Source: Bacteroidales bacterium
GTDB lineage: Bacteria > Bacteroidota > Bacteroidia > Bacteroidales > PUMT01
Assembly: GCA_007134675.1 (NCBI GenBank)
Contig: SLKJ01000001.1
Span: forward strand, 1-60,931
Reading direction: 5' to 3'
Length of the DNA stretch: 60,931 nt
The notes beneath the pieces were generated by a model. It was not told where the DNA came from. It ran no database searches and saw only the letters and a list, made by a program, of their open reading frames with translations. Positions 669-20,215 of the stretch are shown here, piece by piece (within the stretch, counting starts at the first letter, position 1; every line of letters starts with the position of its first letter). A program made the translations under genes and the position numbers.

Positions 669-2291
669 CTATAACTTCGAAATATACAACACAATTGGTA
701 TATTTCGCCAGAACCACCAGTCTGAGGGTGGTATAGCCATACCAGTATCAAGACCTTCAGCTGCCCTTTTCTCTCCCGTATATGGCTGAATCCATACAGC
801 TTCATAACCGGGTGTGATTTCAAGGATTGAAATATCAAAAGGTTCGGAGGAATCGAATCTGTAAAAAATAAACTCCCGATTATCGTCACTGACCATACAA
901 TAACCTTCGGAATCATTTACCAAAGAAGAAAACTCGGGCAGAAGGACCGCCGGTATGAAACGGGAAAAACCAACATGATTGAAGAAATCGCTCATCACCT
1001 TAAGATAACTGTATCCCTGCGGAGTATGATCGTACCTTATCACATCCCAGGCAGTATAAGTATAATAATAGGTACTGTAGGCCCCTGCCATCGCTATTTG
1101 CCAGGCCCTGCGGTAGTTTTCCTCCGGACTGACTACCGGGCCGCGAAATAATTTGTCATCCATCCCTCCTGGTCCGTGCTCATAGGCGTATTCAATATTC
1201 ATTACAGGCCACTCCCTGTATTCTCTCATTTCCAGCGCTCTTTGATGCCTTGTCTCCAGATGATACTGGTCGGGATGAAAATCAATCAGGTCATCATAAT
1301 GTGATTCGAAAATTTTATCATCGTCATGAAGTGTAACCAGCCGGCCATAAGGATCAGTATCTCTTATTAGCTTTAACCTGTTTTTCTTGTATTCAATATC
1401 GGTTGTGTAATATGACTCCTTGGCATAATCCCACACAATATTGGGATAAGCTGAATAACGACTGATTACATATTTAAAATACCTGTCATCATCTTCACTG
1501 GCGGGCTCGGGCCAGTTAACTATTTTATTTGTAACCGTAAGCATTAAATGAGCAATAATACCCCTTTGATGCATCGCATAGATTACTCTGTCGAAATGCT
1601 CCCAGAAGGGAATATACAGTACAGAATGGTCAGGGGAAAAATTATTTCCTTCCCAGGGTATCATCAGTGGTGGTCCGAAATCATAATCCGAGGTGATACC
1701 GGGAGACCATCTGGTATCATAAGCATAAACATTCATAACTATATAGTTGAATCCAAATAGGGAGATTTTATCGAGGAACTGTTCTGTAATGCTAATGTCT
1801 TCATTCCCCTGGTCAATACTCCAGAGCCAGTCACATTCATATCCGCTTATAAAAGGAACCGTGCCGTCTTCAAATATGAAATGCCGGGGATTATCACTAT
1901 CAACAAGTAATTGCCCCCGTACGGCAGAGTTTTCATTCCCGATACAAACAAACCGTTCTTTATGACCGTTTAGTTCTTCAATATCCGAATGGGTAACAAA
2001 AAACCAGGTTCCTTCCATATTGGCCGAAATCCTTATTACCATATTATTGTTCCCATTATAAAATCCCAATGCCGTAAACTCAGTGCCATCAGGCCGGGTA
2101 ACCTGCGCTGTAAGCTTCACATCAAAAGGATTTTGGACTTTTCCTGCATCAAATTCATAGACAAAATCATGAGGCTCCCACTTTCTTATTTCGGGAACTT
2201 CATAACCACACCCGGGAAAACAAATTGCAAATAACAAGAAGATCAGGGTAGTATTAACAATCTCTGATGCCAGAAAATTTGTCTTTTTCAT
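669..2291 (-). CDS. DUF5060/DUF4038 (apiosidase-like TIM barrel) putative glycoside hydrolase, probable lipoprotein
   Basis: NPFDVKLTAQVTRPDG...GFYNG N-domain, HFIFEDGTVPF, RYSAYPNIVWDYAKE and PVMNIEYAYE motifs; hydrophobic stretch ending FPGC. Confidence 0.7.
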   Translation of the reverse strand: MKKTNFLASEIVNTTLIFLLFAICFPGCGYEVPEIRKWEPHDFVYEFDAGKVQNPFDVKLTAQVTRPDGTEFTALGFYNGNNNMVIRISANMEGTWFFVTHSDIEELNGHKERFVCIGNENSAVRGQLLVDSDNPRHFIFEDGTVPFISGYECDWLWSIDQGNEDISITEQFLDKISLFGFNYIVMNVYAYDTRWSPGITSDYDFGPPLMIPWEGNNFSPDHSVLYIPFWEHFDRVIYAMHQRGIIAHLMLTVTNKIVNWPEPASEDDDRYFKYVISRYSAYPNIVWDYAKESYYTTDIEYKKNRLKLIRDTDPYGRLVTLHDDDKIFESHYDDLIDFHPDQYHLETRHQRALEMREYREWPVMNIEYAYEHGPGGMDDKLFRGPVVSPEENYRRAWQIAMAGAYSTYYYTYTAWDVIRYDHTPQGYSYLKVMSDFFNHVGFSRFIPAVLLPEFSSLVNDSEGYCMVSDDNREFIFYRFDSSEPFDISILEITPGYEAVWIQPYTGEKRAAEGLDTGMAIPPSDWWFWRNIPIVLYISKL

Positions 2292-2464
2292 CTCTTTTTT
2301 TTTAATGATGGTAAATGTAATTATTTTTAGGTCAACGATATTTATTTTGGATAAAAGAATTCATTTGATAAAACAATGGATCTTCCGTCTCCCCAAAGGT
2401 TTCCCTGGTATACATCATGATCGTCGGGTGTGACAATTATGGGTATACAAATAAGAGCAACACA

Positions 2465-5400
2465 CTAGTCGTTGCGCAACGAAGCGGTAAGATTGCCGCC
2501 CCTTATCATCAGCAGGGAGGTGACCGTTATCCAGAGGAGGCCATGGAGGAATATGGCCACGACCATGACTGCCAGAAAACCCGGGTTGATCTGTTGTGAG
2601 CCGGGCATAAGAGATGGAACTATGGCTATTATGGCAGGCGGTATCCCCGCCGCCAGTCCCCCGACCAGCAGAAGAAGGTATTCACGCACAATGATCATGT
2701 TGATCTGCGATCTCCTGAAGCCAAGCGATACATAGAGTGCCAGCTCCATCCTCCTTTCTGCAATGGACCGGGCCATGACCACTGCCAGACCGGCTACCCC
2801 CAGAAGTATTCCGAGGGCGCCAAGCATCATGAAGATTGCAAGATAGGTGTTTTCTACCGAGTTGAACTCATTAAGCCGCTCGGCCGCGGTTGCCATTTCC
2901 CATCCCTGATCGTTGAATATGAAGCCAAGCTCTTCGCGCAGTTCCTCCTCCCTGTCGTGTTCAGCATCGATCAGGAAGAAGCTGCTGCCGCTTGTTGAGG
3001 GGAAATGTTTAAGAAAAATATCCTCAGAAATGATGACATTGCCCTGAAAGATCGAGTTTGCCAGTCCACCGACCAGCAGCAGCCCTATCTCCCGTCCCCG
3101 TTCATCGGTATAGAAAAGTGTGTCGCCAACCCTCTTGTTCAGTCCCCATTGTATCACAGCCTGGTCGGCAATGGCCGGTATCAAAGGCGTTGAGGCCCGT
3201 GAGGGTTGTACCTCACGTTCGGCGGTTACAGTTGACTGGTCCTCTGCCGGACCATGCGCTGCCGTGCCGGCCCCACCATTGTTGGTTCTTATGGTGGCCG
3301 GGCCGGCATCACTCCCGGGCAGCTCTTTGTTAAGGCTCTGCCAGGGGTTGTCGTTGTCAAGCCAGTCTGTGTCTCTTGCAAAGCTGAACCTGCCTTCAAG
3401 GTATGAAGGATCGGTTGCTATAATACGAGGATTTTCTACCTCGTTAAGGTTCAGACAGCTTGCATCGTCGGCATAACTTGCCATGAACTGTACAAAACCC
3501 ACATCAGGGGGTATGTTCAGATCAAGACGGGTCTCCCTGCTGTTAAGATTATGGAGGACCGGCACCGTAGATTCGGCTACGAAGAGGAACCCACCGGTAC
3601 CTCCTTCAGGGTGCAACTCTGCAGTTGCGGCATCTTTCCTGAAAGAGCCGGTTGCGATGATCACGAATATGCCCAGCGCAAGCAGTATGATCACCATAAG
3701 GCTCCTGGTGCTGTTGCGTGCCAGGTTCCTGATGCTTAGCCGTGTCATGTCTATTCTGTCATATGCCCTGTTTGCTACCAGCATCAGCAGCACACGAACC
3801 AGCAGCAGTACAGCCACAAGTAGCAGTCCCCCGCTAACGAAAAAGCCCACAGGGCCTGCATCAAGGCCGGTAAAAAGCTGCAGCAGAAGAGCTGTCACTC
3901 CGGCAAATGTAAAAAGCAGTGCAACCGACAGAGTGAAGTTGTGACTGGAATCTGCCTGTCTGCGGGGTTGTATATAAGCCAGTAACTTTTTAAGCATGTT
4001 ACCGTCCGTTAATTTCGTGCCGGTTGAAGAAGTTGTTATCAGCCATTTTTTCCTGGCAGTTCTCTCGTATATGGCAGAGCCATCATTGCCTTCGTCAGTG
4101 GAGTCGGAAGGGTTAGTTGCCGGTTTTCTGAGAATGTACCTGTTAATACCGAAGAAGGTAACCAGCAGGGCGATGGCGAGCGAAATTGTGAGTCCACCGA
4201 TTAATGAAAAGGGATTTATAACCAGTACCAGCAGGTCAGTGCGCACGATATCCTGCCACACCTCCATCAGGGCGTACCTTACCAGCTCGCCGTATCCAGC
4301 TGCCAGCAGAAGTCCCGCGAACCCCCCGGCCACAGCGACAAGCATCCCTTCGCCCATGTATATCTTTCTTATAAGTGCCGGTGTATAGCCCAGGGAAGAG
4401 AAGAGTCTGACCTGAGAGGATCTTCTTTCGAGGTTGAAAAGCATCAGCAGGAAATAGAGCATCACACCCGCCAGCATCACGAAAAAGCCGAGTCCCCCGA
4501 AAAGCATCCCGAAGTCTATTCCACCCGCAGCAGCCTCCAGTCCCTGCTCCCTCAGACCGTTTACCTGGAAGCCCATCTGCAGGGGGTCAGCAACCCGGGT
4601 GATGGTATTGCGGACCTGCCGGAGGTCGCTCTCTTCTCCGGAAAGCCAGACAGAGGTGAGGTTGCCGAACCTGTTTGTCCACAACCGCTGTCCCTCTTCG
4701 AGCGATATGTATGCCTTGGGTGTGCCCCGGTAGCCGGTCCAGTAATCTTCATCGGCATCTCTTATTCTGTCGAGCGATATGGGTACCCCCGCGTCCCAGT
4801 CCCTGCAGCTCCCGGCATCCGACAAACCCGGCAGGAATGGCATCAGTGTGCTGTCGGCTGCCGACCGGTCCATGCCGATAATACCGGTAACAACCAGTCT
4901 GACATCCCTCTCTTCCAGCTCGCGGCGGGGACCGGTTTCAAAATAGCTGACCATCAGAGTGTCGCTGATGCCAGCTCCAAGATCATCGGCCAGCCAGCTG
5001 TTTATAACAGTTTCCCCCGGCCCGAGTCCGAATTGTTCAGTGGCTGCAATAAAGGAATAGGGGGTGTTGTTATCGCCCTTTTCGATAGAGTTTACAAAGT
5101 AGGTAAGCACACGGTTGGCTGTGGGGAATGCTTCGCTGAGCCTGGCGGACAGGTGCTCTTCGATGAACACCCTCTCAGAGCTTATCTCTGTCATCTCCAC
5201 GTCGTTCCTGTATTTTACAACCATGTTCCCATCTTCCGGCTCAAAGGAGTCCTTCAGGTGCGCCTTCAGATCCCTGCGATCTGCATCTTCATCAGAAAGA
5301 AAAAGGGCGTTGGCCATGCCGTCGAGCCCCATCACGGTATTGAGCCAGCAGATATTAACAAACACGTTGAAAGGGGCCGTTTGTGATACACGGAGGTTGA

Positions 5401-9340: not shown

Positions 9341-10360
9341 ATGAATAAAAATTGCAGTATGGAGAATAAATATTCAAGACGTGATTTTATCCAGACTTTG
9401 ATGGCCGGAGTTCTGATGTTCCCGGTTGAAAATCAGACGACCAGCAATGGTCTTATACCATTGCGGCCGTTGGGGAAGACCGGCGAGAAGGTATCTATGA
9501 TCGGTTTTGGAGGATGGGACCTTGGGTTTATTGATGAAAAGCTTGCCATACGGATGATCCATCAGGGGGTTGACGCTGGAATTACCTTTATCGACAATGC
9601 CTGGGAATATCACAATGGACGTTCGGAAGAGGTAGTTGGAAAGGCTGTGGCAATGGGCAGGATGCGTGATAAGGTATTTTTGATGAGCAAGGTTTGTGCC
9701 CGTGATTACCAGGGTGCAAAACGTCACCTGGAAGATGGTTTACGACGATTAAAAACTGATCGTATTGATCTTGTTATGTTGCACTCTATCCAATATGATG
9801 GCGACGGTGAACGTGTATCTGATCCGGAAAACGGGGCCGTAAAAGCCCTGGTGGAAGCCAGAAAAGAAGGTAAACTCAAGTATATAGGTTTTTCAGGTCA
9901 CCGTGATCCGGAGATCCATCTTGAAATGTTAAATATGCCTGTTGAATGGGACTCCATGCTGCTGCCCTTAAATATTATGGATGCACATTATAACAGTTTT
10001 CAAAAAAAAGTGTTGCCAATCCTGCTTGATCGCCAGATAGCTCCATTGGGTATGAAATCACTGGTTGGTCGGTTCAACCGAATAACTGAAAGGATCAATG
10101 TTTCGGCAGAGCTTTGTCGCTGGTATGTCATGTCACTTCCGGTGAGTACCCTGGTTTGCGGATGGCAGAATATAAATCAAATGCAGCTTTGCATAGATAT
10201 TGCGCGTGATTTTAAACCTCTCACCAGTAGCAAAATTGAAGAGCTGCTTGATTTATCAGAAACTCCCGGATCTGACGGGGCATCCGAGTATTATAAAGAC
10301 GGTAACCGTGGTTATGGTTGTTCCTACCATGCAGGAATTTTGAGGGAGCAACAGGGTTAG
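9341..10360 (+). CDS. Aldo/keto reductase with twin-arginine-like N-terminus
   Basis: SRRDFI motif; RPLGKTGEKVSMIGFG, IDNAWEY, MSK, LRRLKTDRIDLVMLH (D-Y-K-H tetrad). Alternative start at 9359. Confidence 0.88.
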   Translation: MNKNCSMENKYSRRDFIQTLMAGVLMFPVENQTTSNGLIPLRPLGKTGEKVSMIGFGGWDLGFIDEKLAIRMIHQGVDAGITFIDNAWEYHNGRSEEVVGKAVAMGRMRDKVFLMSKVCARDYQGAKRHLEDGLRRLKTDRIDLVMLHSIQYDGDGERVSDPENGAVKALVEARKEGKLKYIGFSGHRDPEIHLEMLNMPVEWDSMLLPLNIMDAHYNSFQKKVLPILLDRQIAPLGMKSLVGRFNRITERINVSAELCRWYVMSLPVSTLVCGWQNINQMQLCIDIARDFKPLTSSKIEELLDLSETPGSDGASEYYKDGNRGYGCSYHAGILREQQG

Positions 10361-10445
10361 GCGATCAGGGTTACATAATGAACCTGACCCCGGTTGTAGT
10401 GATAATAAGAGGTATTCCGGATAATTATTATTAATATCCAGGTTG

Positions 10446-11732
10446 TTATTCTCTTACTTCCCTGTAGATACCAACCAGTTTCGCGGACTGGGTGTTGATA
10501 TTGAACTTTTCCTCGACTCCCTCTCGTGCTTTCCGGCTCATCTCCTCAAGCACCTTTTTATTGCCGAGTACTTTTTCCAGTGCTGCAGCCAGCTTCAGCG
10601 GGGTATTTTCTCCACATAATAATCCTCCTCCGCCTGGTTCAATTATTTCAGGGAAAGCTCCCAGTGAGGGTTGTACAGCCGGTATACCGCTGGCCATGGC
10701 TTCTGTCAGGTAAATACCGAAGGCCTCACCGTTACGTACCGGTACCGACAGAACTGATACGCGTTCGAAGAAAATATGCCTGTGCTCATTATCAAAGTTC
10801 TCCAGAAATATAACGTCCTTATCAACTCCGGCATCTGCGATCTTCTGTTTCTGCTGCCTGATAAAAGTGTTATCGTCGCCGGTACTTCCACCACTGACGT
10901 ATAGCTTCAGGTCGTGGTTTTTGGCATCGGACTTAAGTAAGATAAAGGCATCTACCAGTATGTCAAGTCCGTTAGCCTCACACATTCGTGACAGGAACCC
11001 TATTGAGCGTGCTTTCCCGCCGGAATTTATATATTTATAATCGTCAGGATCGACTCCAAGATGAAGTGTATGAACCTTTTTGTCTTCAAGATTCATCTTC
11101 TCTTTCATAAACCGCGTAAAGTAATGGCTGACTGATACAAATGCAGCAATATCCCTGGCTTTTTCACTCATCAGTTTCCATACTGCTTCGCGGCTTGTCT
11201 CAGACATTATATCAACCCATACATCCTCATCCTGAAGCGAGCATACCACCGGTACGCCGAGTCGGCTGTTAAGCCTTCCTGCAAGTCCCAGAAGCAGAGC
11301 ATTTGAAAGGTGAATAACATCGGGCTTGTAGTTCTTTTCAAGCCAGTGCACCATTTTTTCAAGTTCATCAGCCTGCTTGCCGTGCTCACCCAGCAGCATC
11401 GATATGGTCATATCCTCCAGACCCTTTGCCCGGGTTGATCCTGCCATTTTAGCTGCCTGTTTCAGCACAGGCGTGGTATTCAGCATATTGTCAAACCACT
11501 TTGGTGCTTTCTTAAAAAGAGGGTAGGTTTGCTTAAGGTAGAGGTTTACTGCTCCGTAAAATACCGGCACGTGGTCGTTGTCTTTATCATGGCTGAACAG
11601 GGGCAGGTACATTGGGATCTTCAGAACATCATGCCCAAGTGTTTTTATTGAGCTGTAATATTTACTGTCGCGCAGGCAGTTGCCACAGTAAAAGCTTCCT
11701 CCCGAACCAGGTATGATATGGACTATCTTCAT
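10446..11732 (-). CDS. Glycosyltransferase family 4 (GT-B) with N-terminal CxxC
   Basis: PDVIHLSN, EAFGIYLTEAMASGIP (EX7E), GAFPEII; N-terminal GSGGSFYCGNCLRD. Confidence 0.88.
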   Translation of the reverse strand: MKIVHIIPGSGGSFYCGNCLRDSKYYSSIKTLGHDVLKIPMYLPLFSHDKDNDHVPVFYGAVNLYLKQTYPLFKKAPKWFDNMLNTTPVLKQAAKMAGSTRAKGLEDMTISMLLGEHGKQADELEKMVHWLEKNYKPDVIHLSNALLLGLAGRLNSRLGVPVVCSLQDEDVWVDIMSETSREAVWKLMSEKARDIAAFVSVSHYFTRFMKEKMNLEDKKVHTLHLGVDPDDYKYINSGGKARSIGFLSRMCEANGLDILVDAFILLKSDAKNHDLKLYVSGGSTGDDNTFIRQQKQKIADAGVDKDVIFLENFDNEHRHIFFERVSVLSVPVRNGEAFGIYLTEAMASGIPAVQPSLGAFPEIIEPGGGGLLCGENTPLKLAAALEKVLGNKKVLEEMSRKAREGVEEKFNINTQSAKLVGIYREVRE

Positions 11733-11834
11733 AACTTCTTGCTTTTATTATTTTTATCTTACGTTTTGCCGTTTCTTAATGCTCAGAATAAATTGTTGGT
11801 TGTGCGGATCACTGCCCGGTTTTATTACAAGGGT

Positions 11835-12986
11835 TCAGTTCCCAAGGCACCAAACTGTTCCGTCGTTGGTGCCCAATACGATTCTGTTGCCCGATATTGC
11901 AGGACTCCCCGATACCGCGCTACCCGTCTCGAACATCCACAGCCTCCTGCCTGTATTGATATCGAGCAGCAAAATGTCGCCCCTCATATTGGCTACAAGC
12001 ACCTGCCTGCCGTCTGTAACCGCCGACGATTCGACCCTGCTGCCCGTGTTTGTTTTCCATTGAACCTCTCCCGTCTTTTTATCAAGGCTGTAGACAAACC
12101 TGTCCCTGTTCCCGATGATGATTCTGTTGCCATAGATTGCAGGGGATGCGACGAATGGAAGCTGCCTCTCCTCATCAGTCCACCGCCAGAGGATATTACC
12201 CCCGAGATAATTGACTGCGGTCAAGGTCCCGTCATAGTCGCCTATATAGGCAATCTCTTCATCCAAAGCCGGTGATCCGGCCACGTAGCTGGCTATCTCA
12301 ATTTCGGGAAGTGCGTCACCCCTTTGCAGGTCAACCCTGTGCAGGTAGCCGTCGCAACCGCCAAACACCGCCAGGTCACTCTCAATTGCCACGGCTGAGT
12401 GGAGGTAGTTGTACAGCTCATATTTCCATAAACCTTCGCCGGAATCGGCATCTATGGCGTGAAGGTAATAGTCATAGCTGCCCACCAGCAGGATATCTCT
12501 TTTGCCGTCTGACCAGATGTTGGGGGCAGCCGATACCTGGTTATCGCAATCGTATTGCCATATCAGCCTTCCGCTGCTCAGGTCAAGGCAGAAGATGGTG
12601 CCCTGAAGATTGCCGATGTACACCCTGTTATTATGGATCAGGGCAGGTGCCTCGATGGTGTTGCCGGTTTCGTACTGCCAGATCAGTTTGCCATCCATGC
12701 TGAGGCAATAGACAATACCGTCTCCCGATCCTATGACAATCCTCGAGTTGTAAATAACCGGAGAGGACTTAAGGTCGAATCCGGCTTCGAAAGTCCACAA
12801 TACTTCCGGATTTGCCGGGATCTGGTTCACTGTCTTGCCCGTAAGTTGTGCATTGCCCCTGTAATTTTTCCAGTCGCCTCCGTCAGGCCGGGCCTGCAGC
12901 GGGGTAACAGCCGTGATTATGACTAAAACAATAGCAGTCATTACCGGATCATATCGTTGGCGGAACTTGCTTAAATGGTTATTCAT
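11835..12986 (-). CDS. Exported PQQ-binding-like beta-propeller protein
   Basis: Signal peptide, WKNYRGN, repeated SSPVI...G.DG.VYCL...G.LIWQY tryptophan-docking blades. Confidence 0.88.
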   Translation of the reverse strand: MNNHLSKFRQRYDPVMTAIVLVIITAVTPLQARPDGGDWKNYRGNAQLTGKTVNQIPANPEVLWTFEAGFDLKSSPVIYNSRIVIGSGDGIVYCLSMDGKLIWQYETGNTIEAPALIHNNRVYIGNLQGTIFCLDLSSGRLIWQYDCDNQVSAAPNIWSDGKRDILLVGSYDYYLHAIDADSGEGLWKYELYNYLHSAVAIESDLAVFGGCDGYLHRVDLQRGDALPEIEIASYVAGSPALDEEIAYIGDYDGTLTAVNYLGGNILWRWTDEERQLPFVASPAIYGNRIIIGNRDRFVYSLDKKTGEVQWKTNTGSRVESSAVTDGRQVLVANMRGDILLLDINTGRRLWMFETGSAVSGSPAISGNRIVLGTNDGTVWCLGN

Positions 12987-13017
12987 AATACCTCGGTTTA
13001 ATATTTTGTCAGGGGCT

Positions 13018-14625
13018 TTAATCTTTTGTTCGCTGAGTTAACTCATAATGATCATCATCAGTCCGGCTGATCCCGTTTTCGCCCTCCCTGAGTGCGATTG
13101 CCCCGGTTGGACAGGCTCCCGCCAGTATGGAGCCGGTTTTTTTAATGGCATCTTTGATGTTTTCATCAAAGGGCACTGCAATCTCTACATCGTATCCTCT
13201 TCCCATGTATGTTAATCCTGGCCTTTCGTGATATTTTGCGGCAAGCCTCACGCAGATTCCGCACCTGATACATTTACCCGGTTCAATGACAACAATGTCA
13301 TGATCAATTGTCTTTTTGACTGCTTTTCTCTCCTCGAGGCTGAACCTTCTCTGTGATGCCGCGTACCTCTGTGCCAATTTTCTCAGTATGCATCCTGACG
13401 GCTTCAGACATTCGCAGTGCATGCAGCGCAACGCTTCGCGTGCCGCTTTGCCTGCATCAAAACTCCCTCCGGATTTTACGTTGGGTTCAATCCTCTGTTC
13501 AGAGGAGACACCGTTCATATAGGCCGGGAACTCACCTTCACGAAGACGGCCGATTCGCGAATTGAACTGTTTGGTCTCACCTGAGGGACTTGAACCGCCA
13601 AGCAGCTTCTCAATGCTGAAAGCCACCTCCTTGCCCTGGGCAGCCGACCTGATGGCAAGTCTGGTGCTGCGGTTGACATTGCCCACGGCAAAAACATCAG
13701 GTATACTGGTCAGGTAGCTATCCTTATCGACAGTCACCTGTTTGCCATTGTTTGCAAGTCCCCACTTACCAACCTCCTCTGTAAAATTACCTGTGGCAAC
13801 CACCACCGCATCGTAATCCTTCACTATCTTTTCAAACCGGGCCCTGTTTACTTTGGTGCCCGGATGGTATTCAACGCCTGAATCCAGTATAAAACCGGTC
13901 TCCCGATCAAGCACCTCCCTGTCGAGGGTCTTTTCGTCGATTTCATACCTCAGGGCGCCACCCGGCAGAGGGTTGCTGTCGAACAGGGTACAGGAAAATC
14001 CTTTTACCTGAAGGTACCATACTGCCGAAAGCCCTGCGATTCCCGCCCCGATGACGGCAACCCTGCCCTCTTTTGGAGGTGCCTGCTTTACCTCTAAATT
14101 TCCTTCATCACCCGCGAAACGTTTGAGGAGGCATATTGATACCGGCTGGTCAACACCCTTGCGGTGACATGCTCCTTCGCAGGGGGTGGGGCATATCCTG
14201 CCGAGCACCGATGGCATTGCAATATCTTTCATTACCGTTTCAAGGGCTTTGTCTGCATTACCCTCTGCAATAAAACGGTTCATAAGGGGGATATCCATGT
14301 TCGCAGGGCAGGCAATCCGGCACGGTGCTTCGCAGTCGCCGACATGCTCTGACAGAAGAAGCTCGATTGCGGTCTTTCTTGCCAGCTCTATCTCTTCGCT
14401 GTCTGTTGTTATATCCATGCCCTCAGCAGCAAAAACAGAGCAGGAAGGGATGAGCGAAGAGGAGCTTTTATCTTTTACCACGCATACCATACATGAGGCA
14501 AAATGTCCTGCATCGCTGTTGTAGCACATCGCTGGTATTTCAATGCCCTCACGAGCTGCCGCTTCATACACCGTCATCCCTTTAGTTGCCGTAACTTCGC
14601 GGTTGTTTATCCTGAGTCTGACCAT
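13018..14625 (-). CDS. Fe-S flavoprotein, BfuA/NuoG-GltD hybrid (2Fe-2S, His-ligated cluster, GltD-type clusters, FAD domain, C-terminal 4Fe-4S), no catalytic domain
   Basis: IPAMC...ASCMVCVV...SC [2Fe-2S]; SEHVGDCEAPCRIACP; GRICPTPCEGAC; VAVIGAGIAG; RCMHCECLKPSGCIL; KCIRCGIC...ACPTGA. Confidence 0.82.
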   Translation of the reverse strand: MVRLRINNREVTATKGMTVYEAAAREGIEIPAMCYNSDAGHFASCMVCVVKDKSSSSLIPSCSVFAAEGMDITTDSEEIELARKTAIELLLSEHVGDCEAPCRIACPANMDIPLMNRFIAEGNADKALETVMKDIAMPSVLGRICPTPCEGACHRKGVDQPVSICLLKRFAGDEGNLEVKQAPPKEGRVAVIGAGIAGLSAVWYLQVKGFSCTLFDSNPLPGGALRYEIDEKTLDREVLDRETGFILDSGVEYHPGTKVNRARFEKIVKDYDAVVVATGNFTEEVGKWGLANNGKQVTVDKDSYLTSIPDVFAVGNVNRSTRLAIRSAAQGKEVAFSIEKLLGGSSPSGETKQFNSRIGRLREGEFPAYMNGVSSEQRIEPNVKSGGSFDAGKAAREALRCMHCECLKPSGCILRKLAQRYAASQRRFSLEERKAVKKTIDHDIVVIEPGKCIRCGICVRLAAKYHERPGLTYMGRGYDVEIAVPFDENIKDAIKKTGSILAGACPTGAIALREGENGISRTDDDHYELTQRTKD

Positions 14626-14649
14626 TTAGTGCTTTGCTTAAACTGATTC

Positions 14650-17013
14650 TTATCCTATTTTAACTGCACCTGTGGGGCAGGCTTCCCTGCAGATATTGCA
14701 CCTGGTACATTCCTTGTCGTCTATTTCATGTTTTTCATGCGGACTGAAGGCTATGGCATCGACCGGGCATTTCTGCGCGCAGATGGTGCAGCCGATACAT
14801 TCTTCGTCAACATAGTAGGTAATGAGTTCCTTGCATTTGCCGGTTGGGCACTTCCCTTCAAGGTGCGCCTCGTACTCGTCGCGAAAATACCTTATTGTTG
14901 ACAGCACCGGGTTGGGTGATGTCCTGCCGAGGCCGCAGAGGCTGCCTGCCTTTACCTGCAGGGCAAGTGTTTCGAGCTCTTCAAGTTCGCCGGCTTTTGC
15001 CTTCCCGCTGCACATCCTGTCGAGTATGTTCAGCATCCTGCGGGTTCCTACCCTGCAGAAGGTGCATTTGCCGCAGGACTCCGACTGGGTGAATGAGAGA
15101 AAATACCTTGCCATGTCAACCATGCAGTCGCTGCTGTCCAGCACCACCAGTCCCCCGCTGCCCATCATTGCCCCTGCGTCAAGCAGCGATTCGAAATCGA
15201 CCGGTGTATCGGCCAGGTAGTGAGGGAGACAGCCACCCGACGGGCCTCCTATCTGTACCGCCTTGAACTGTTTGTCGCCGGCAATGCCACCCCCGATTTC
15301 CTCAACTATCTCCCTGATGGTTATTCCCATGGGCACCTCAATCAGTCCCCCACGCCTTATCTTCCCGGCAAGTGCGAATACCTTGGTGCCCATACTTTCG
15401 GCAGTGCCTGTCGATGCAAACTTTTTTGCCCCCTGATCCATTATATAAGGCACCATTGCAAAAGTTTCGGTGTTGTTGATAAGCGTGGGCCTGCCCCATA
15501 AACCGTTTTCTGCCGGGTAGGGGGGGCGAATCCTGGGAAAACCCCTCTTGCCCTCTATCGATTCAATGAGCGCCGTCTCCTCTCCGCATACGAAAGCTCC
15601 GGCACCCTCTTTGATTCTTATATTGAAGCTGAAGCTGCTGTCAAGTATATTGTCCCCCAGCAATCCTTTGGCCACACACATCTCGATTGCCCGCCTGATT
15701 CTTTTTACGGCCAACGGGTATTCGGCCCTGATGTAAAATATGCCTTCAGGTGTGCCTACTGCCATTGCCGCAATGGTCATGCCCTCGATAATCCTGAAGG
15801 GATAGGATTCGAGAAGCATCCTGTCCATGAACGCGCCGGGGTCACCCTCGTCGCCGTTGCATATAAGTATCTTCCCTTCACCGGGTTGTGAGGCAGCCAC
15901 CTCCCATTTTTTTCCTGTCGGGAATCCGGCGCCGCCCCTTCCGCGCAGTCCGCTCTCAATAATCTCTTTTATAACTTCACCAGGCTCCATTTCAAGCGCC
16001 CGTTTGAGTCCCCCAAACCCGCCGCGGTCAATATAATCATTCAGATCAAGAGGATCAAGTACGCCCCTGTGCTCGGTGGCAATGGGTATCTGGTTTCCTA
16101 AAAAGGAGGCAACATGCTTTTCCCTCACATCTATCGAGTAGCGTTCGATGCCTTCCCAGTCGTCGTCGGTCTGTATTGTTTCTGCAATCTTTGTGATCCC
16201 GTTCCTGAGGCGTGTGAGGAGTCCGGGAGGCGCAAAATGCGACCTGACGATCGATCTCACATCGGAGGGCGAAACCTTCGCGTAGAGCTTCGATTGTCCG
16301 TTACTGCCGTCTCCGGTAACCACTTCAAGAAGAGGCACCTGGTGGCACATGCCCACGCAGCCAACCTGTTTGATATTCACATTAATCCTGTCGCGAGTTA
16401 CCGATTTCTCGACAGCATCCTTTATATCGCTGCTCCCGCTTGCAATGCAGCAGGAGCCCAGGCCAACCCTTATCTCTCCCTGGAGCTCTCCCCCCGGCAG
16501 GATGACACCCTTCTTTTTCTTATCCTTGCCTTCACGGCTGAGGAAATCCTTAAGCACATCTGCTGAATTGTTTGCTGTAACATGGCCATAGGTTGTATCA
16601 TCGATCTGGACAACCGGAGCCAGCGTGCAGCATCCCAGACATGCCACCTTTTCGATAGTGAACAGCCTCTTGTCGTCAGTCGACCGGCCAGGTGCCAGTT
16701 TCATCTCCCTGGCCATCGCGTCATGCACAAGCATGGCGCCTTTTACGTGGCAGGCTGTACCGGTGCAGACCTTTACAATATGTTTGCCGGCAGGCTCAAA
16801 CCTGAACTGGGTGTAAAAACTTGCTACGCCTGTAATTTCGGCCGGAGTGATGCTGGTGGTGTCGCATACTCTTTTAAGTGCTACCTTCGGAAGGTAATTA
16901 TACCTTTCCTGTATTGCCTGCAAAACAGGTATTACGGCACTCTTATCTTTCCCCGAAAGGGAGATTATCTCGTCAACATCTGTTTGTATCCTGCTTAGCT
17001 CGGCTTCCATCAT
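14650..17013 (-). CDS. Fused NuoE-NuoF / HydC-HydB (BfuC-BfuB) NAD(H)-FMN Fe-S subunit
   Basis: NuoE-type CTGTAC...CLGCC; second 2Fe-2S domain GSCCIASG...GCVGMC; GLRGRGGAGFPTG; NGDEGDPGAFMDR; GAGAFVCGEET; SLBB GGPSGG; ESCGKCTFCR; two C-terminal CxxCxxCxxxCP motifs. ATG 17013 preferred over TTG 17025. Confidence 0.92.
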   Translation of the reverse strand: MMEAELSRIQTDVDEIISLSGKDKSAVIPVLQAIQERYNYLPKVALKRVCDTTSITPAEITGVASFYTQFRFEPAGKHIVKVCTGTACHVKGAMLVHDAMAREMKLAPGRSTDDKRLFTIEKVACLGCCTLAPVVQIDDTTYGHVTANNSADVLKDFLSREGKDKKKKGVILPGGELQGEIRVGLGSCCIASGSSDIKDAVEKSVTRDRINVNIKQVGCVGMCHQVPLLEVVTGDGSNGQSKLYAKVSPSDVRSIVRSHFAPPGLLTRLRNGITKIAETIQTDDDWEGIERYSIDVREKHVASFLGNQIPIATEHRGVLDPLDLNDYIDRGGFGGLKRALEMEPGEVIKEIIESGLRGRGGAGFPTGKKWEVAASQPGEGKILICNGDEGDPGAFMDRMLLESYPFRIIEGMTIAAMAVGTPEGIFYIRAEYPLAVKRIRRAIEMCVAKGLLGDNILDSSFSFNIRIKEGAGAFVCGEETALIESIEGKRGFPRIRPPYPAENGLWGRPTLINNTETFAMVPYIMDQGAKKFASTGTAESMGTKVFALAGKIRRGGLIEVPMGITIREIVEEIGGGIAGDKQFKAVQIGGPSGGCLPHYLADTPVDFESLLDAGAMMGSGGLVVLDSSDCMVDMARYFLSFTQSESCGKCTFCRVGTRRMLNILDRMCSGKAKAGELEELETLALQVKAGSLCGLGRTSPNPVLSTIRYFRDEYEAHLEGKCPTGKCKELITYYVDEECIGCTICAQKCPVDAIAFSPHEKHEIDDKECTRCNICREACPTGAVKIG

Positions 17014-17021
17014 TTTAACTT

Positions 17022-18878
17022 TCAATTACCTATGCAGTAAAGATAGTCCTCCCCCCTGATGTAAATTCTGCCATCGGCAAAGGCCGGGGTTGTATAAACC
17101 TCCTCGCCGAGAGAGTTCTTTACCAGAAGGTTCGGTTCTCCTCCTGTTTCAAATATGTATGTGTTACCACTGATATCGGTAACATAGAGCCTGTTGCCTG
17201 CAACCACGGGTGACGAATAGAAAATGTCATCGGCATCGTACTCCCAGAGCTGCTCGCCTGTCTTTGCATCCATGCAGGCAAGCACCGCATAGGTTGTTGC
17301 GATGAAAACATATCCGTTACCATAAACGGGACTTGCCACCTCAGGCAGGTAGAAGTTATCTTCCCACACTACAGTTCCCGTTTCCGGGTTGATGGCGGCC
17401 ATGGTGGCATATTCGTTGGCCGCGAAAACAAATCCCCCGCCAAATGCCGGAGAAGGCCCGACCTCGCCTGCCATGGCGCTTACCGACCACAGCTCCCTTC
17501 CTGTTTCAATGTCGTACCCTGCCACTATGGGGTTTCCTTTGGCCACGAGCTGATAACTGCCGTTCACGTTGGCCAGTATAGGGGAGGCCCATGAGACATT
17601 TGATTCCCTTTTTATGTCCCAGATGGTCTCGCCTGTCAGGACGTTGAGGGATAGTATCCTGCCCTGGTCAAGATCGTCATACTGCACAAACAGTTTTTCA
17701 CCGTAAGAGATAAGTGATGAAGAGTGGCCGTAATGGTTATCGGGTACACCCAGATTCCTTGCCCACAGACGGTTTCCCTCCATGTCGAGCGCTATGATAT
17801 CGCCCGTACCGAATATCGCATATACGCCAATCCCGTCGGTGGTGGCAGACGGCGCACCCAGTCCGGTATCAGGCGTGGTTCTCGGTGGTGTTGCCGGCGA
17901 CCCGGGGATGTTATCGGCCGAAGCTTCCCAAAGGAGTTCGCCGGAATGTCTGTTGAAACAGAATACCTTTCTCTCACGGTCGTCGGCCCCGGTAAGGAAC
18001 AGCCTGTCGCCCCAGATTACAGGCGAACTGAAGGCGTGCAGGGGGACGGGCACTTTCCACAGAATGTTGGTGCCCGATTCTCCGTCCCATTCCATGGGCA
18101 GGTTTTCATGGAATACTACCCCGTTGCTCCAGGGTCCTCGTATTGCATTATGATTCTGCCTGATTGTGGTTGCACCGGGGAAGGAGGGTGCGGTGGGTGT
18201 GGCCGGAGCCAAGTCAGTCACGGGAGGGTCGGCAGGGGCCTCCTCCGGGTCTTCTTCTTTGGTTCCGGGTTCTTCGGTTTCAGGATCTTCGGGCGATGGG
18301 GCAGGGGTGGGCCTGGTATCAGTTGGCCTGGTATCGGGATCGGTTATTGTAATGCGTTCAACGTGGTCTCCAGACTCTGTGGGAGGGGGAAGATCGGACA
18401 GGTATCTTTCAAGAGGATCTGAAACGGTAAATGTTGCCAGCAGTGCAATTGCTATAAGTATACCGGTTCCTGCAAGTATCCATCGGCGTGAAAGTGCCCG
18501 ACTGGTAATGTCGTTGGTTTCTTCTTCCTTATCGGGTTTTTCAATTTTGTCAATAAGTGAATAGTAGATTCTGAGAGCGCCCACAAGGATAATGGCGGCA
18601 AAGAGCAGAAGCATGCCGCCTGTCCTGACCTGCCAGAGACTGGTAAAATAGGCCTTCCTTGCCAGCAGGTCAAACTGCCTGATCTCCTTTTTAAGCTGTT
18701 CGTTGCCGGGCTCCAACGCCAGCCTTTGCACAAGGGTTTCCATTACCTCACTATCCAGCGGGTCAGCTGATTGCATTTGCAGAAAGTTGAGAAGCAACAG
18801 CAGGCTTATCACAATGCAAAATGCACCTGCTACCGTAGCTGACTGTTTTGCAATTTTTATTTTGTCGCCGATGTTCAT
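17022..18878 (-). CDS. Membrane-anchored PQQ-binding-like beta-propeller with Pro/Glu-rich linker
   Basis: Three N-terminal hydrophobic helices, linker DPDTRPTDTRPTPAPSPEDPETEEP, then FSSPVIWGDRLF and YTTPAFADGRIYIR blades. Confidence 0.87.
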   Translation of the reverse strand: MNIGDKIKIAKQSATVAGAFCIVISLLLLLNFLQMQSADPLDSEVMETLVQRLALEPGNEQLKKEIRQFDLLARKAYFTSLWQVRTGGMLLLFAAIILVGALRIYYSLIDKIEKPDKEEETNDITSRALSRRWILAGTGILIAIALLATFTVSDPLERYLSDLPPPTESGDHVERITITDPDTRPTDTRPTPAPSPEDPETEEPGTKEEDPEEAPADPPVTDLAPATPTAPSFPGATTIRQNHNAIRGPWSNGVVFHENLPMEWDGESGTNILWKVPVPLHAFSSPVIWGDRLFLTGADDRERKVFCFNRHSGELLWEASADNIPGSPATPPRTTPDTGLGAPSATTDGIGVYAIFGTGDIIALDMEGNRLWARNLGVPDNHYGHSSSLISYGEKLFVQYDDLDQGRILSLNVLTGETIWDIKRESNVSWASPILANVNGSYQLVAKGNPIVAGYDIETGRELWSVSAMAGEVGPSPAFGGGFVFAANEYATMAAINPETGTVVWEDNFYLPEVASPVYGNGYVFIATTYAVLACMDAKTGEQLWEYDADDIFYSSPVVAGNRLYVTDISGNTYIFETGGEPNLLVKNSLGEEVYTTPAFADGRIYIRGEDYLYCIGN

Positions 18879-18946
18879 TTTATATCCTGTTCTTTCTGTT
18901 TTATTTTATTGTATTGCCTGAGACTGCCAATCTGTTTTCTGCCTGA

Positions 18947-20215
18947 TCATTTCTGCACGGGGCAATACTTCATGCAGCGGCCGCAACTATAGCAGTCGCC
19001 TCTGTTCGGTTCATAATCGGTTCTCCTCCTCACTATATACTGGGAGATGAGGAACAACCCGGCCACCAGACCGATGAAAACCCCTGTAAACCATGCTCCT
19101 GTATAGAATGATGCCTGTATTTCACCTGCTGATTCAACCAGTTCGTCGATGGTCCGGTCTGATCCAAGAAAGGTCTGTACGTCCAGATTGTTGAGGTCAT
19201 CCATAACTTCCGGGTTATCGATAAGAAGGTGGGCAAGGTATACATCAGGATGGGCCTTTGCCAGGAATACATGTGAGGAGGAAAGTGCGAGTCCACCTAT
19301 CAGCATCAGCAGTGGTATAATTGCTGCATAGAGCATGAACCTGCCTGTACGGCCCTTTATATCATGTACGAGCTTGTCGGGTGTCGGTTTGTCAATGGCT
19401 CCGAAGGGACATGAATCAGTACAGAGTTTACACTGTATACACTGGTTCGGGGTAATCGAAAGGTGGCGCTTTGAGAATATGGACGTGACCTTCAGAAGCG
19501 CGCCGTAGGGACACACAAACCTGCAGTAGGGCCTTGCCACGAACATACCGGTCAGCAGGAAAGATATACCAAGGACTATAAGGTGGAATTCTGCACCCAT
19601 CCTGAAAATCCCTACGAAAGGATCATAGCGGCATATAATAAAGTCTGTGCCGGTGGCCGCGTAGAGCACTGCAAGTGCCAGGTAGACAAAAGGGAACATT
19701 CCAAGGGATTTCTGAATCCATACCGGAACACTGACAGGCCTGACTATCACAAGGTCCTGTATGGCACCAAGGGGACATGCAGAGCCACAAAAGACTCTGC
19801 CGAATGAAAGACTGAAGATAAGGGGAAGGATGAAGAATGCAATTACCGTATAGGAGACTGCATATGAGGGATCGGACAGTGACAGAACCATGTTTTGCGG
19901 TGAGCCGACCGGACAGATACAACCATTCCGCCAGAAGCCGAAATAGAGCAGTGCGCCGACTGACATCCAGAGGATCCATTGCCTGGAGCGTTTTTTTATC
20001 ACGACCCAGGAAGTTACCAGCAAAAAGAGGAGCAGCACGATCACATCACCATATTCAAGGGCAAGTGCCCTGGGCTCAGGAGTTATGACGTCGGGCAACT
20101 CATAGCCGGATTCAAATTCCGGGGCTGGGAAACGTTGCTGGGAAAAGGTTTCTTCAGGTATTGCTGTTGCCAGCAAAAACAGCAGGAGGGGTAATATGAT
20201 GGATGTAAGCTTCAA
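18947..20215 (-). CDS. Membrane 4Fe-4S protein, NapH/MauN-like
   Basis: Multiple TM helices; CICPVG, FCGSACPLG, YCRFVCPYG; ferredoxin motifs CIQCKLCTDSCP and CYSCGRCMKYCP. Confidence 0.85.
   Translation of the reverse strand: MKLTSIILPLLLFLLATAIPEETFSQQRFPAPEFESGYELPDVITPEPRALALEYGDVIVLLLFLLVTSWVVIKKRSRQWILWMSVGALLYFGFWRNGCICPVGSPQNMVLSLSDPSYAVSYTVIAFFILPLIFSLSFGRVFCGSACPLGAIQDLVIVRPVSVPVWIQKSLGMFPFVYLALAVLYAATGTDFIICRYDPFVGIFRMGAEFHLIVLGISFLLTGMFVARPYCRFVCPYGALLKVTSIFSKRHLSITPNQCIQCKLCTDSCPFGAIDKPTPDKLVHDIKGRTGRFMLYAAIIPLLMLIGGLALSSSHVFLAKAHPDVYLAHLLIDNPEVMDDLNNLDVQTFLGSDRTIDELVESAGEIQASFYTGAWFTGVFIGLVAGLFLISQYIVRRRTDYEPNRGDCYSCGRCMKYCPVQK

Follow-up and report, generated by a model that had tools for sequence, protein, structure and literature searches.

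The 60,931-nt stretch of DNA considered here (the window; contig SLKJ01000001.1 of assembly GCA_007134675.1, from a Bacteroidales bacterium) encodes, within a conserved operon of 10-11 genes, a fusion of the electron-bifurcating (Bfu) subunits BfuC (HydC) and BfuB (HydB). To our knowledge, no other family of electron-bifurcating enzymes is understood less well than Bfu, whose third substrates known so far (H2, NADPH, formate and aldehydes) are soluble. The locus raises the question of which third redox partner such a core might use here. An earlier sequence-only reading had proposed that the operon itself supplies a third partner besides NADH and ferredoxin, possibly defining a new Bfu subtype. 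By every sequence criterion tested, the system belongs to the Bfu family, and it is neither an Nfn/Stn transhydrogenase nor a hydrogenase. The search for the partner narrowed to a truncated BfuA of the StnC/NfnA type, followed by a NapH-like/NapG-like module at the membrane and in the periplasm as the best candidate, and we lean, if narrowly, towards a new Bfu subtype in which this NapGH-like module is the third partner.

The ATG at residue 5 (position 17013) is a more likely start for the fused gene than the TTG at 17025, since it fits the starts of the orthologues better. Pfam recovered the domain series of a NuoE-type [2Fe-2S] protein joined to a full-length HydB, as had been claimed: the BfuC domain, whose C1 ligands (C87, C92, C129 and C133) are near-invariant in 18 sequences, is followed by Complex1_51K (residues 357-526), SLBB (550-598), NADH_4Fe-4S (637-721) and a Fer4 dicluster (740-789). 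A second thioredoxin-like domain (B5; residues 185-270 approximately, with C192, C193, C223 and C227) aligned with the N-termini of solved NfnB, StnB and HydB, in agreement with the idea that the HydB part carries its own N-terminal [2Fe-2S] domain. The motifs quoted in that reading could all be located in the translation: GDPGAFMDR (393-401), NNTETF (516-521), GGPSG (593-597), DCMVD (632-636), EAHLEGKCPTGKC (718-730), CIGCTICAQKCP (743-754) and CTRCNICREACP (773-784), the Cys/His set being the Cys3His site B2 (C634, H721, C726 and C731) and the C-terminal part the two [4Fe-4S] clusters B3/B4.

The sequence of the linker between the two parts (residues 163-183) is not conserved across the family alignment. 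The C-B fusion looks like a simple read-through joining of adjacent genes, and the gene order C-B-A also occurs in the genome's own Stn-type operon. Such fusions are common: PF01257 and PF01512 were present together in all of the at least 120 homologues listed (63-93% identity, 775-809 aa), with Bacteroidales, Prolixibacteraceae, Maribellus and Draconibacterium among the named sources. Cultured Maribellus species have orthologues of both BfuCB and BfuA, and an uncultured Draconibacterium record has the fused BfuCB. Because all of the homologues listed are fused, the fusion is not what defines a subtype. A search for longer homologues found no fusion of BfuCB to a beta-propeller. Separately, a metagenome protein of 1903 aa (P0244; 43% identity to the window fusion) combines BfuC, BfuB and an Nfn-type BfuA (PF00070) in one chain.

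Comparison with solved structures placed the fusion with the B subunits of bifurcating enzymes. Its nine best Protein Data Bank (PDB) chains are B subunits of Bfu-type complexes, headed by NfnB of Caldicellulosiruptor saccharolyticus (Csac; 9bov_B, 711 bits), NfnB of Tsib (9n5u_B, 698 bits) and StnB of S. ovata (8oh5_B, 677 bits); the identity of 9BOV was taken from PMC11829005 and that of 9N5U from its Foldseek title. HydB chains followed, at 634 bits for the NiFe-HydB of A. mobile, about 624 bits for 8a6t_B and 7q4v_B and 569 bits for T. maritima 7p5h_B, and non-bifurcating chains scored lower (NAD-formate dehydrogenase beta, at most 415 bits; NuoF/Nqo1, at most 357 bits).

To compare the ligands directly, the window fusion was aligned with 17 fused orthologues, 12 Stn-type and six FeFe-type BfuB proteins of related genomes, six shorter homologues, a BfuB-GltD fusion and E. 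coli NuoF. Each of the 18 fused proteins carries C1 (four Cys), B5 (four Cys), GDPGAF at the flavin mononucleotide (FMN) site, B2 (C-H-C-C), B1 (four Cys) and B3/B4 (eight Cys). Eight additional fused orthologues carry the same complete set, bringing the total to 26/26, at 54-90% identity. In contrast, E. coli NuoF has N-G-S-I at the B2 positions, MEPGTY in place of GDPGAF, and neither B5 nor B3 and B4, and three HydB-like proteins of 387-392 aa from related genomes lack B2, B5 and B3/B4. The statement that these features mark bifurcating BfuB off from NuoF and other diaphorases thus held up. The B2 His is reported to be missing from just 8 of 1558 BfuB sequences and to be absent in non-bifurcating homologues (Schut et al, 2022; PMC9304861); in newer structures, B2 has been reassigned to a Zn site, and B1-FMN-C1 is taken as the minimal bifurcating site (PMC11829005).

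Phylogeny gave the same answer. Two IQ-TREE trees were rooted on E. coli NuoF, one of 45 rows (quick search, LG+C20) and one of 43 rows and 594 columns (careful search, LG+G4), the latter without the long-branch row x599_L073 and an RnfC-like row. In both, the fused proteins formed a single clade (support 100 in the first tree, 100/100 in the second) whose sister group was Stn-type BfuB from the same order, with 90 in the Shimodaira-Hasegawa-like approximate likelihood ratio test (SH-aLRT) in the first tree and 80/87 in the second. All of the Bfu-type rows were separated from E. coli NuoF and the NuoF-like rows (100/99, second tree), so that the fusion groups with Bfu-type BfuB rather than with NuoF or the short non-bifurcating HydB-like proteins. 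Neither tree contains the named T. maritima or A. mobile HydB, for which the PDB bit scores stand in; the comparison that had been suggested was thus made by alignment and tree for E. coli NuoF and by bit score for these two.

The Bfu family was taken as defined by Schut et al (2022; PMC9304861), that is, by the BfuBC core, the BfuB domain set and a BfuA homologue with, at the minimum, one [2Fe-2S] and one 4Fe-4S domain. The locus has the BfuB domains, the C1 site of BfuC, the B2 site, the corresponding position in the trees and, in the operon, a BfuA homologue. We are therefore highly confident that it encodes a Bfu-family core with a truncated BfuA, and these features suggest that the fused core may bifurcate.

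It is nevertheless conceivable that BfuCB and BfuA form a non-bifurcating input module, which oxidises NADH or ferredoxin and feeds a NapGH-like chain much as NuoEFG feeds complex I, the extra clusters being wires or relics. The operon and co-occurrence data described below would fit equally, an acceptor at quinone potential needs no confurcation, and BfuA has in places eroded to a bare wire. However, the invariance of B2, B5 and B3/B4 in 26/26 orthologues at 54-90% identity is not expected of relics, exactly these parts are missing from the short non-bifurcating HydB-like proteins, and the fusion lies inside the Bfu-type clade. We consider such a module unlikely.

The sequence-only reading had noted that no hydrogenase partner was present. 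This is correct for the operon, in which no H-cluster subunit (Fe_hyd_lg_C) was found among 13 neighbouring proteins scanned, but not for the genome, which encodes a HydABC [FeFe] hydrogenase (154 + 650 + 574 aa) with its own HydB and HydC on contig C67. A canonical Stn/Nfn-Bfu, comprising proteins of 176, 592 and 1238 aa with Pyr_redox and Molybdopterin domains, is encoded on contig C146. Since both are found on other contigs, the fused system is predicted to be a third, separate Bfu complex of this genome. A 443-aa PF01512 match on contig C122 (L001, open reading frame 997-2328, minus strand) was rejected as NuoF; its branch in the first tree was 10 long, and it is probably RnfC. If so, the genome has three Bfu-type cores, with no match to NuoF found.

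What distinguishes the fused system is its BfuA, encoded directly downstream of the fusion. Pfam identified Fer2_4 (residues 1-76), a GltD-type Fer4_20 (98-174), a single flavin adenine dinucleotide (FAD)-type Rossmann fold (188-280) with the motifs GAGIAG and GN, and Fer4_Nqo3 (445-510). Among solved structures, it is closest to Csac NfnA, S. ovata StnC and Tsib NfnA, and an AlphaFold2 model (pLDDT 86.4, pTM 0.83) superposed on StnC/NfnA at TMq 0.83-0.86. The phmmer match to Csac NfnA was split, with BfuA residues 1-282 on 3-289 and 267-510 on 422-671. When BfuA was aligned by MAFFT with the 1238-aa StnC-like protein of the same genome, the gap corresponded to the second (NADPH) Rossmann fold, some 130-150 residues. 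Everything past the A3 cluster is missing as well, the chain stopping 25 residues after the A3 motif. PF00070 and the Molybdopterin families (PF00384, PF04879) were accordingly detected in the long paralogue and not in the short BfuA, and neither Pfam nor the alignment revealed an FdhF/molybdopterin-like C-terminal domain. In Stn, this FdhF-like domain is the tetramer core, and its deletion yields no active complex (PMC10482914).

In contrast to these losses, the cluster ligands of the short BfuA are retained. C34/45/48/62, C98/102/106/145/149/153/165, C401/404/406/412 and C452/455/458/505, which correspond to A1, A6/A7, A2 and A3, hardly vary among 18 sequences and do not vary at all among 56. 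The electron path described for Csac NfnABC is FAD-A7-A6-A3-A2-A1 (PMC11829005), and all of these cofactor sites are kept.

This architecture bears on another candidate assignment, an NADH-dependent ferredoxin:NADP transhydrogenase of the Stn/Nfn type whose subunits are fused. NfnABC/StnABC are the nearest solved relatives of both subunits, and the fused BfuB is sister to Stn-type BfuB. However, an NADPH Rossmann fold was found in BfuA at no locus checked (18 aligned, four variants scanned with Pfam, and the ultrashort forms described below read directly), and the genome already holds a canonical Stn/Nfn-Bfu with an A subunit of 1238 aa. As BfuA lacks the NADPH Rossmann subdomain and this genome codes for a canonical enzyme elsewhere, NADP(H) is, as judged from domain architecture, not the third substrate, and we regard a transhydrogenase as very improbable.

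Relatives of the operon show that BfuA can be reduced much further. The series runs from long forms (about 1240 aa) through short forms without the NADPH fold (about 520 aa) to ultrashort forms without the flavin (323-366 aa), and provides a clean example of modular decay. The ultrashort proteins (loci L096-L099 and L101) retain A1, A6/A7, A2 and A3 without the GxGxxG motif or the flavin domain; at L103, BfuA is 203 aa long and keeps A1 and A3, with only remnants of the other parts. At L100, a BfuA without the FAD domain forms one protein of 720 aa with the downstream propeller, a hydrophobic segment lying between them. The GxGxxG/FAD domain is thus missing from BfuA at seven loci (L096-L101 and L103). 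BfuA was unreadable at two of the nine loci in this group, as the contig ends inside BfuCB at L105 and no BfuA was detected at L102. Eight of the nine loci hold the whole BfuCB gene, and in all eight it has every ligand.

Two further fusions of BfuA to a propeller through a transmembrane (TM) segment, which do contain the FAD domain, came from the protein collection (P0144, 895 aa; P0146, 898 aa), giving three natural BfuA-TM-propeller fusions together with L100. All three are predicted to tie BfuA to the membrane. BfuA therefore appears to work as an Fe-S wire rather than as a substrate-binding subunit. Since the BC core is constrained, BfuA sheds its soluble-substrate-binding parts stepwise and BfuA is membrane-tethered, the third partner is likely to be a protein with Fe-S clusters.

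These findings also bear on a soluble Bfu enzyme, in which a small molecule (such as a quinone, disulfide or polysulfide) would bind at the FAD of BfuA and the membrane and periplasmic genes would be mere neighbours. In 56 sequences of the short class, the FAD motifs (G193, G195, G198, G222, G223 and G315-N316) show little or no variation, and without the NADPH subdomain the flavin would be exposed. However, the FAD domain has gone from BfuA at seven loci that have the same operon and an intact BfuCB, the natural fusions place BfuA at the membrane, and the NapH-like gene accompanies BfuA with near-perfect regularity. A soluble enzyme is in our judgement improbable, though less so than the transhydrogenase.

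The candidate partner is encoded upstream of the fusion. In the order of transcription, the operon comprises two secreted propellers, an anchored propeller, an NHL propeller, the twin-arginine translocation (Tat)-exported ferredoxin, the NapH-like protein, the 618-aa propeller protein (prop618), BfuCB, BfuA, a further propeller and a family 4 glycosyltransferase (GT4; Table 1). All four Cys motifs of the NapH-like protein are invariant in 17 sequences, and in the NapG-like ferredoxin R9, R10 and 16 Cys are near-invariant in 16 sequences. By analogy with E. coli NapH, the NapH-like protein is probably the only other operon protein with redox centres facing the cytoplasm. The propellers are predicted to face the periplasm.

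When the operon proteins were compared by BLASTP with 32 related loci, some of which may duplicate sampled genomes, the core block of Tat-ferredoxin, NapH-like protein, prop618, BfuCB and BfuA was contiguous in 26. Of the other six loci, four (L012, L094, L104 and L105) are truncated by the end of a contig. At L102, BfuA was not detected in the remaining 1.4 kb downstream, and at L052 (genome G026) the cluster is split, with the NapH-like gene on a separate contig and both halves kept.

Across the order, the NapH-like gene co-occurs with BfuA almost perfectly. The sample consisted of 301 genomes that are related to one another, and the counts describe a pattern rather than a statistical test. 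Short BfuA was present in 43 genomes (39 at a best E of 1e-100 or less, and four others confirmed by context) and a NapH-like orthologue (E of 1e-60 or less) in 53, the operon type as a whole also occurring in about 53; of the 43 genomes with short BfuA, 42 also encode a NapH-like orthologue. Eleven NapH-positive genomes have no short BfuA. Ten of these were examined, and nine have a fused BfuCB beside the NapH-like gene; in the tenth the contig ends earlier. Conversely, genome G116, from the same family as G026, has neither short BfuA nor the NapH-like gene.

Taken with the operon's lack of a hydrogenase or NADPH site and the separate clade of the fused proteins (100/100), this pattern supports the original suggestion of a third redox partner supplied by the operon and of a possible new subtype. 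The results are consistent with the following model. The fused core (FMN, C1, B1, B2, B3/B4 and B5) would react with NAD(H) at the FMN and with ferredoxin at B3/B4. The BfuA wire would be located at the membrane, held there by the anchors of the neighbouring propellers, and electrons would move between it and the cytoplasmic [4Fe-4S] clusters in the NapH-like protein. These clusters could in turn be connected to menaquinone, to the Tat-exported NapG-like ferredoxin or to both, and so to a periplasmic reaction involving the beta-propellers. The complex would thereby couple NADH/NAD+ and ferredoxin to a third partner in the membrane or periplasm, by confurcation or bifurcation. In one direction, NADH and reduced ferredoxin would confurcate to a periplasmic acceptor; in the other, which would resemble Fix/EtfABCX, NADH would reduce ferredoxin, pulled by an acceptor of higher potential. 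In its full form, a membrane-spanning Bfu complex in which a flavin-optional Fe-S wire leads through the NapH-like clusters and the exported ferredoxin to a propeller-based periplasmic machine, either Fix-like, with NADH reducing ferredoxin under the pull of a quinone or periplasmic acceptor, or delivering low-potential cytoplasmic electrons to the periplasm, is a tentative proposal that we think possible but doubtful.

Several points weigh against the NapGH-like module as third partner. The proposed contact between BfuA and the NapH-like protein is a prediction from the sequences, and conserved gene order indicates association, not the direction or nature of electron transfer. The topology of the NapH-like protein, read from hydrophobic segments, the positive-inside rule and analogy, is a prediction, and the protein falls far under the NCBIfam cut-off for NapH/MauN (TIGR02163, 41 versus 213 bits). 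Menaquinone is too positive for a classical mid-potential Bfu substrate. Given the conserved FAD motifs of the short class, the FAD of this organism's BfuA may still act on a substrate. One genome, G154 (97% complete), has short BfuA, and no NapH-like match was found in it. Conserved Cys and His are few in the propellers, and no cofactor site could be recognised in them, so that none stands out as a periplasmic catalyst, and the conserved GT4 gene misfits a purely respiratory role.

Comparison with known systems helps to define what may be new here. The locus shares with NfnABC/StnABC (9BOV, C. saccharolyticus; 9N5U, T. sibiricus; 8OH5, S. ovata) a full-length BC core with all cofactor sites, the fold and the FAD-A7-A6-A3-A2-A1 sites of BfuA (TMq 0.83-0.86) and a BfuB sister to the Stn type, but differs in the fusion of C to B, in a BfuA without the NADPH Rossmann and FdhF-like domains (and in some relatives without FAD), and in an operon linked to the membrane and periplasm. 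The HydABC enzymes of T. maritima, A. woodii and T. kivui share the HydB/HydC-type core and the cluster sites in it (569-625 bits to the solved HydB chains), whereas the window operon has no H-cluster subunit and the genome's own HydB falls in a different clade. The predicted Nuo-Bfu and Mbh-Bfu complexes (Schut et al, 2022) are alike in concept only, in that BfuBC is wired through BfuA to a membrane complex; here, the partner would be a NapH/NapG-like pair with beta-propellers instead of Nuo or Mbh modules. The NapGH, NosGH and MauMN modules, of the quinol-dehydrogenase type, likewise pair a polytopic protein with two CX3CP and two ferredoxin-type motifs with a Tat-exported four-cluster ferredoxin, but no Nap, Nos or Mau catalytic subunit lies near the window pair, which stands instead with a cytoplasmic NAD(H)/ferredoxin module. 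E. coli NuoE/NuoF resemble the fusion in the FMN/NADH fold, the N3-type [4Fe-4S] cluster (B1) and the NuoE-type [2Fe-2S] cluster, but NuoF has no B2, B5 or B3/B4 and lies outside the Bfu clade.

We found no description of a Bfu-NapGH-propeller operon in the Creative Commons-licensed literature of PMC and bioRxiv. The terms 'NapH' and 'polyferredoxin' are absent from the main text of PMC9304861; its supplementary tables may list these proteins, possibly with the Bacteroidetes sequences in clade 53 ('Nfn'). Two apparent precedents were set aside: the 'fused hydB' of bioRxiv 10.64898/2026.10.06.756941 is a different fusion, and 'NapH' in PMC13343851 refers to strain names. If the model is true, it would extend the Bfu family to transmembrane electron transfer, through a widespread Bacteroidales operon with a constrained bifurcating core. 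It would also give the cytoplasmic clusters of NapH-type proteins a physiological role, and offer a tractable system in which to ask what they do.

Table 1. Predicted features of the operon around the fused bfuC-bfuB gene (positions in the window)
Feature	Position	Strand	Basis or remark
BfuC-BfuB (HydC-HydB) fusion gene	14650..17025	-	791 aa from TTG at 17025; 787 aa from ATG at 17013
BfuC/NuoE-type thioredoxin-like [2Fe-2S] domain, residues 18-160	16546..16974	-	Pfam PF01257 (2Fe-2S_thioredx), E 6e-50
BfuC-BfuB linker, about 20 residues (163-183), charged, variable	16477..16539	-	Family alignment
BfuB part, residues 184-791: B5 domain, FMN/NADH site (GDPGAF), SLBB, B1, B2, B3/B4	14653..16476	-	Pfam, PDB alignment, ligand alignment
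Short BfuA, 535 aa	13018..14625	-	Pfam, PDB search, AlphaFold2 model; 24 nt downstream of fusion
PQQ_2-type beta-propeller, secreted, 407 aa, first cluster gene	25000..26223	-	Pfam, direct reading, locus comparison
PQQ_2-type beta-propeller, secreted (signal peptide), 417 aa	23603..24856	-	Pfam, direct reading, locus comparison
PQQ_2-type beta-propeller, N-terminal anchor, 478 aa	22096..23532	-	Pfam, direct reading, locus comparison
NHL-repeat propeller, N-terminal anchor, 321 aa	21128..22093	-	H217, C245 and C246 conserved
NapG-like ferredoxin, Tat-exported (SRREFI), 192 aa, four [4Fe-4S] motifs	20316..20894	-	Direct reading
NapH-like polytopic membrane Fe-S protein, 422 aa, 2x CX3CP + 2x CxxCxxCxxxCP	18947..20215	-	Pfam Fer4_5; NCBIfam below cut-off
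prop618, 618 aa, three predicted N-terminal TM helices, Pro-rich linker, PQQ_2-type propeller	17022..18878	-	Stop overlaps/abuts BfuCB start
Beta-propeller, N-terminal hydrophobic anchor, 383 aa	11835..12986	-	Fused to BfuA C-terminus via TM in three relatives
GT4 glycosyltransferase, 428 aa, conserved last cluster gene	10446..11732	-	Pfam, locus comparison

The remaining genes of the operon showed some further features. The labels given to the propellers by NCBIfam and the ESM Atlas are generic BamB, PQQ or NHL alone. The number of secreted propellers of the 407/417-aa type that open the operon differs between genomes, with one to four in tandem (L046-L057 and L090-L105); three complete copies and a partial fourth lie at L051, for example, and three at L098. 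The N-terminal CxxC of GT4 (C16 and C19) is invariant in 13 sequences. A scan of positions 9800-26800 for sigma-70 promoters and terminators gave nothing usable, the promoter model omitting Bacteroidota and the minus-strand terminator-like sites being intragenic. The G+C content is about 0.46-0.54 in positions 2001-26000, which hold the operon, versus about 0.40-0.46 in 28001-60000, a contrast that could reflect gene content or foreign origin.

Other relatives of BfuB within the order were also encountered. L069 (G254:C1; open reading frame 1411-4500, plus strand) encodes a BfuB of 1029 aa, preceded by a separate BfuC of 166 aa; its C-terminal GltD-like module aligns with residues 104-588 in the long StnC-like protein, making it a different kind of Bfu fusion. 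At L072 (G065:C4), a HydB-like match with five in-frame stops (one TGA, one TAG and three TAA) adjoins a HydA-like gene and is probably part of a decaying hydrogenase operon. Finally, HydB-like proteins of 387-392 aa lie beside HydA-like genes at L076-L078, and NuoF-like proteins of 434-446 aa beside HoxU-like genes at L074-L075; all of these lack B2, B5 and B3/B4, pointing to several non-bifurcating relatives within the order.

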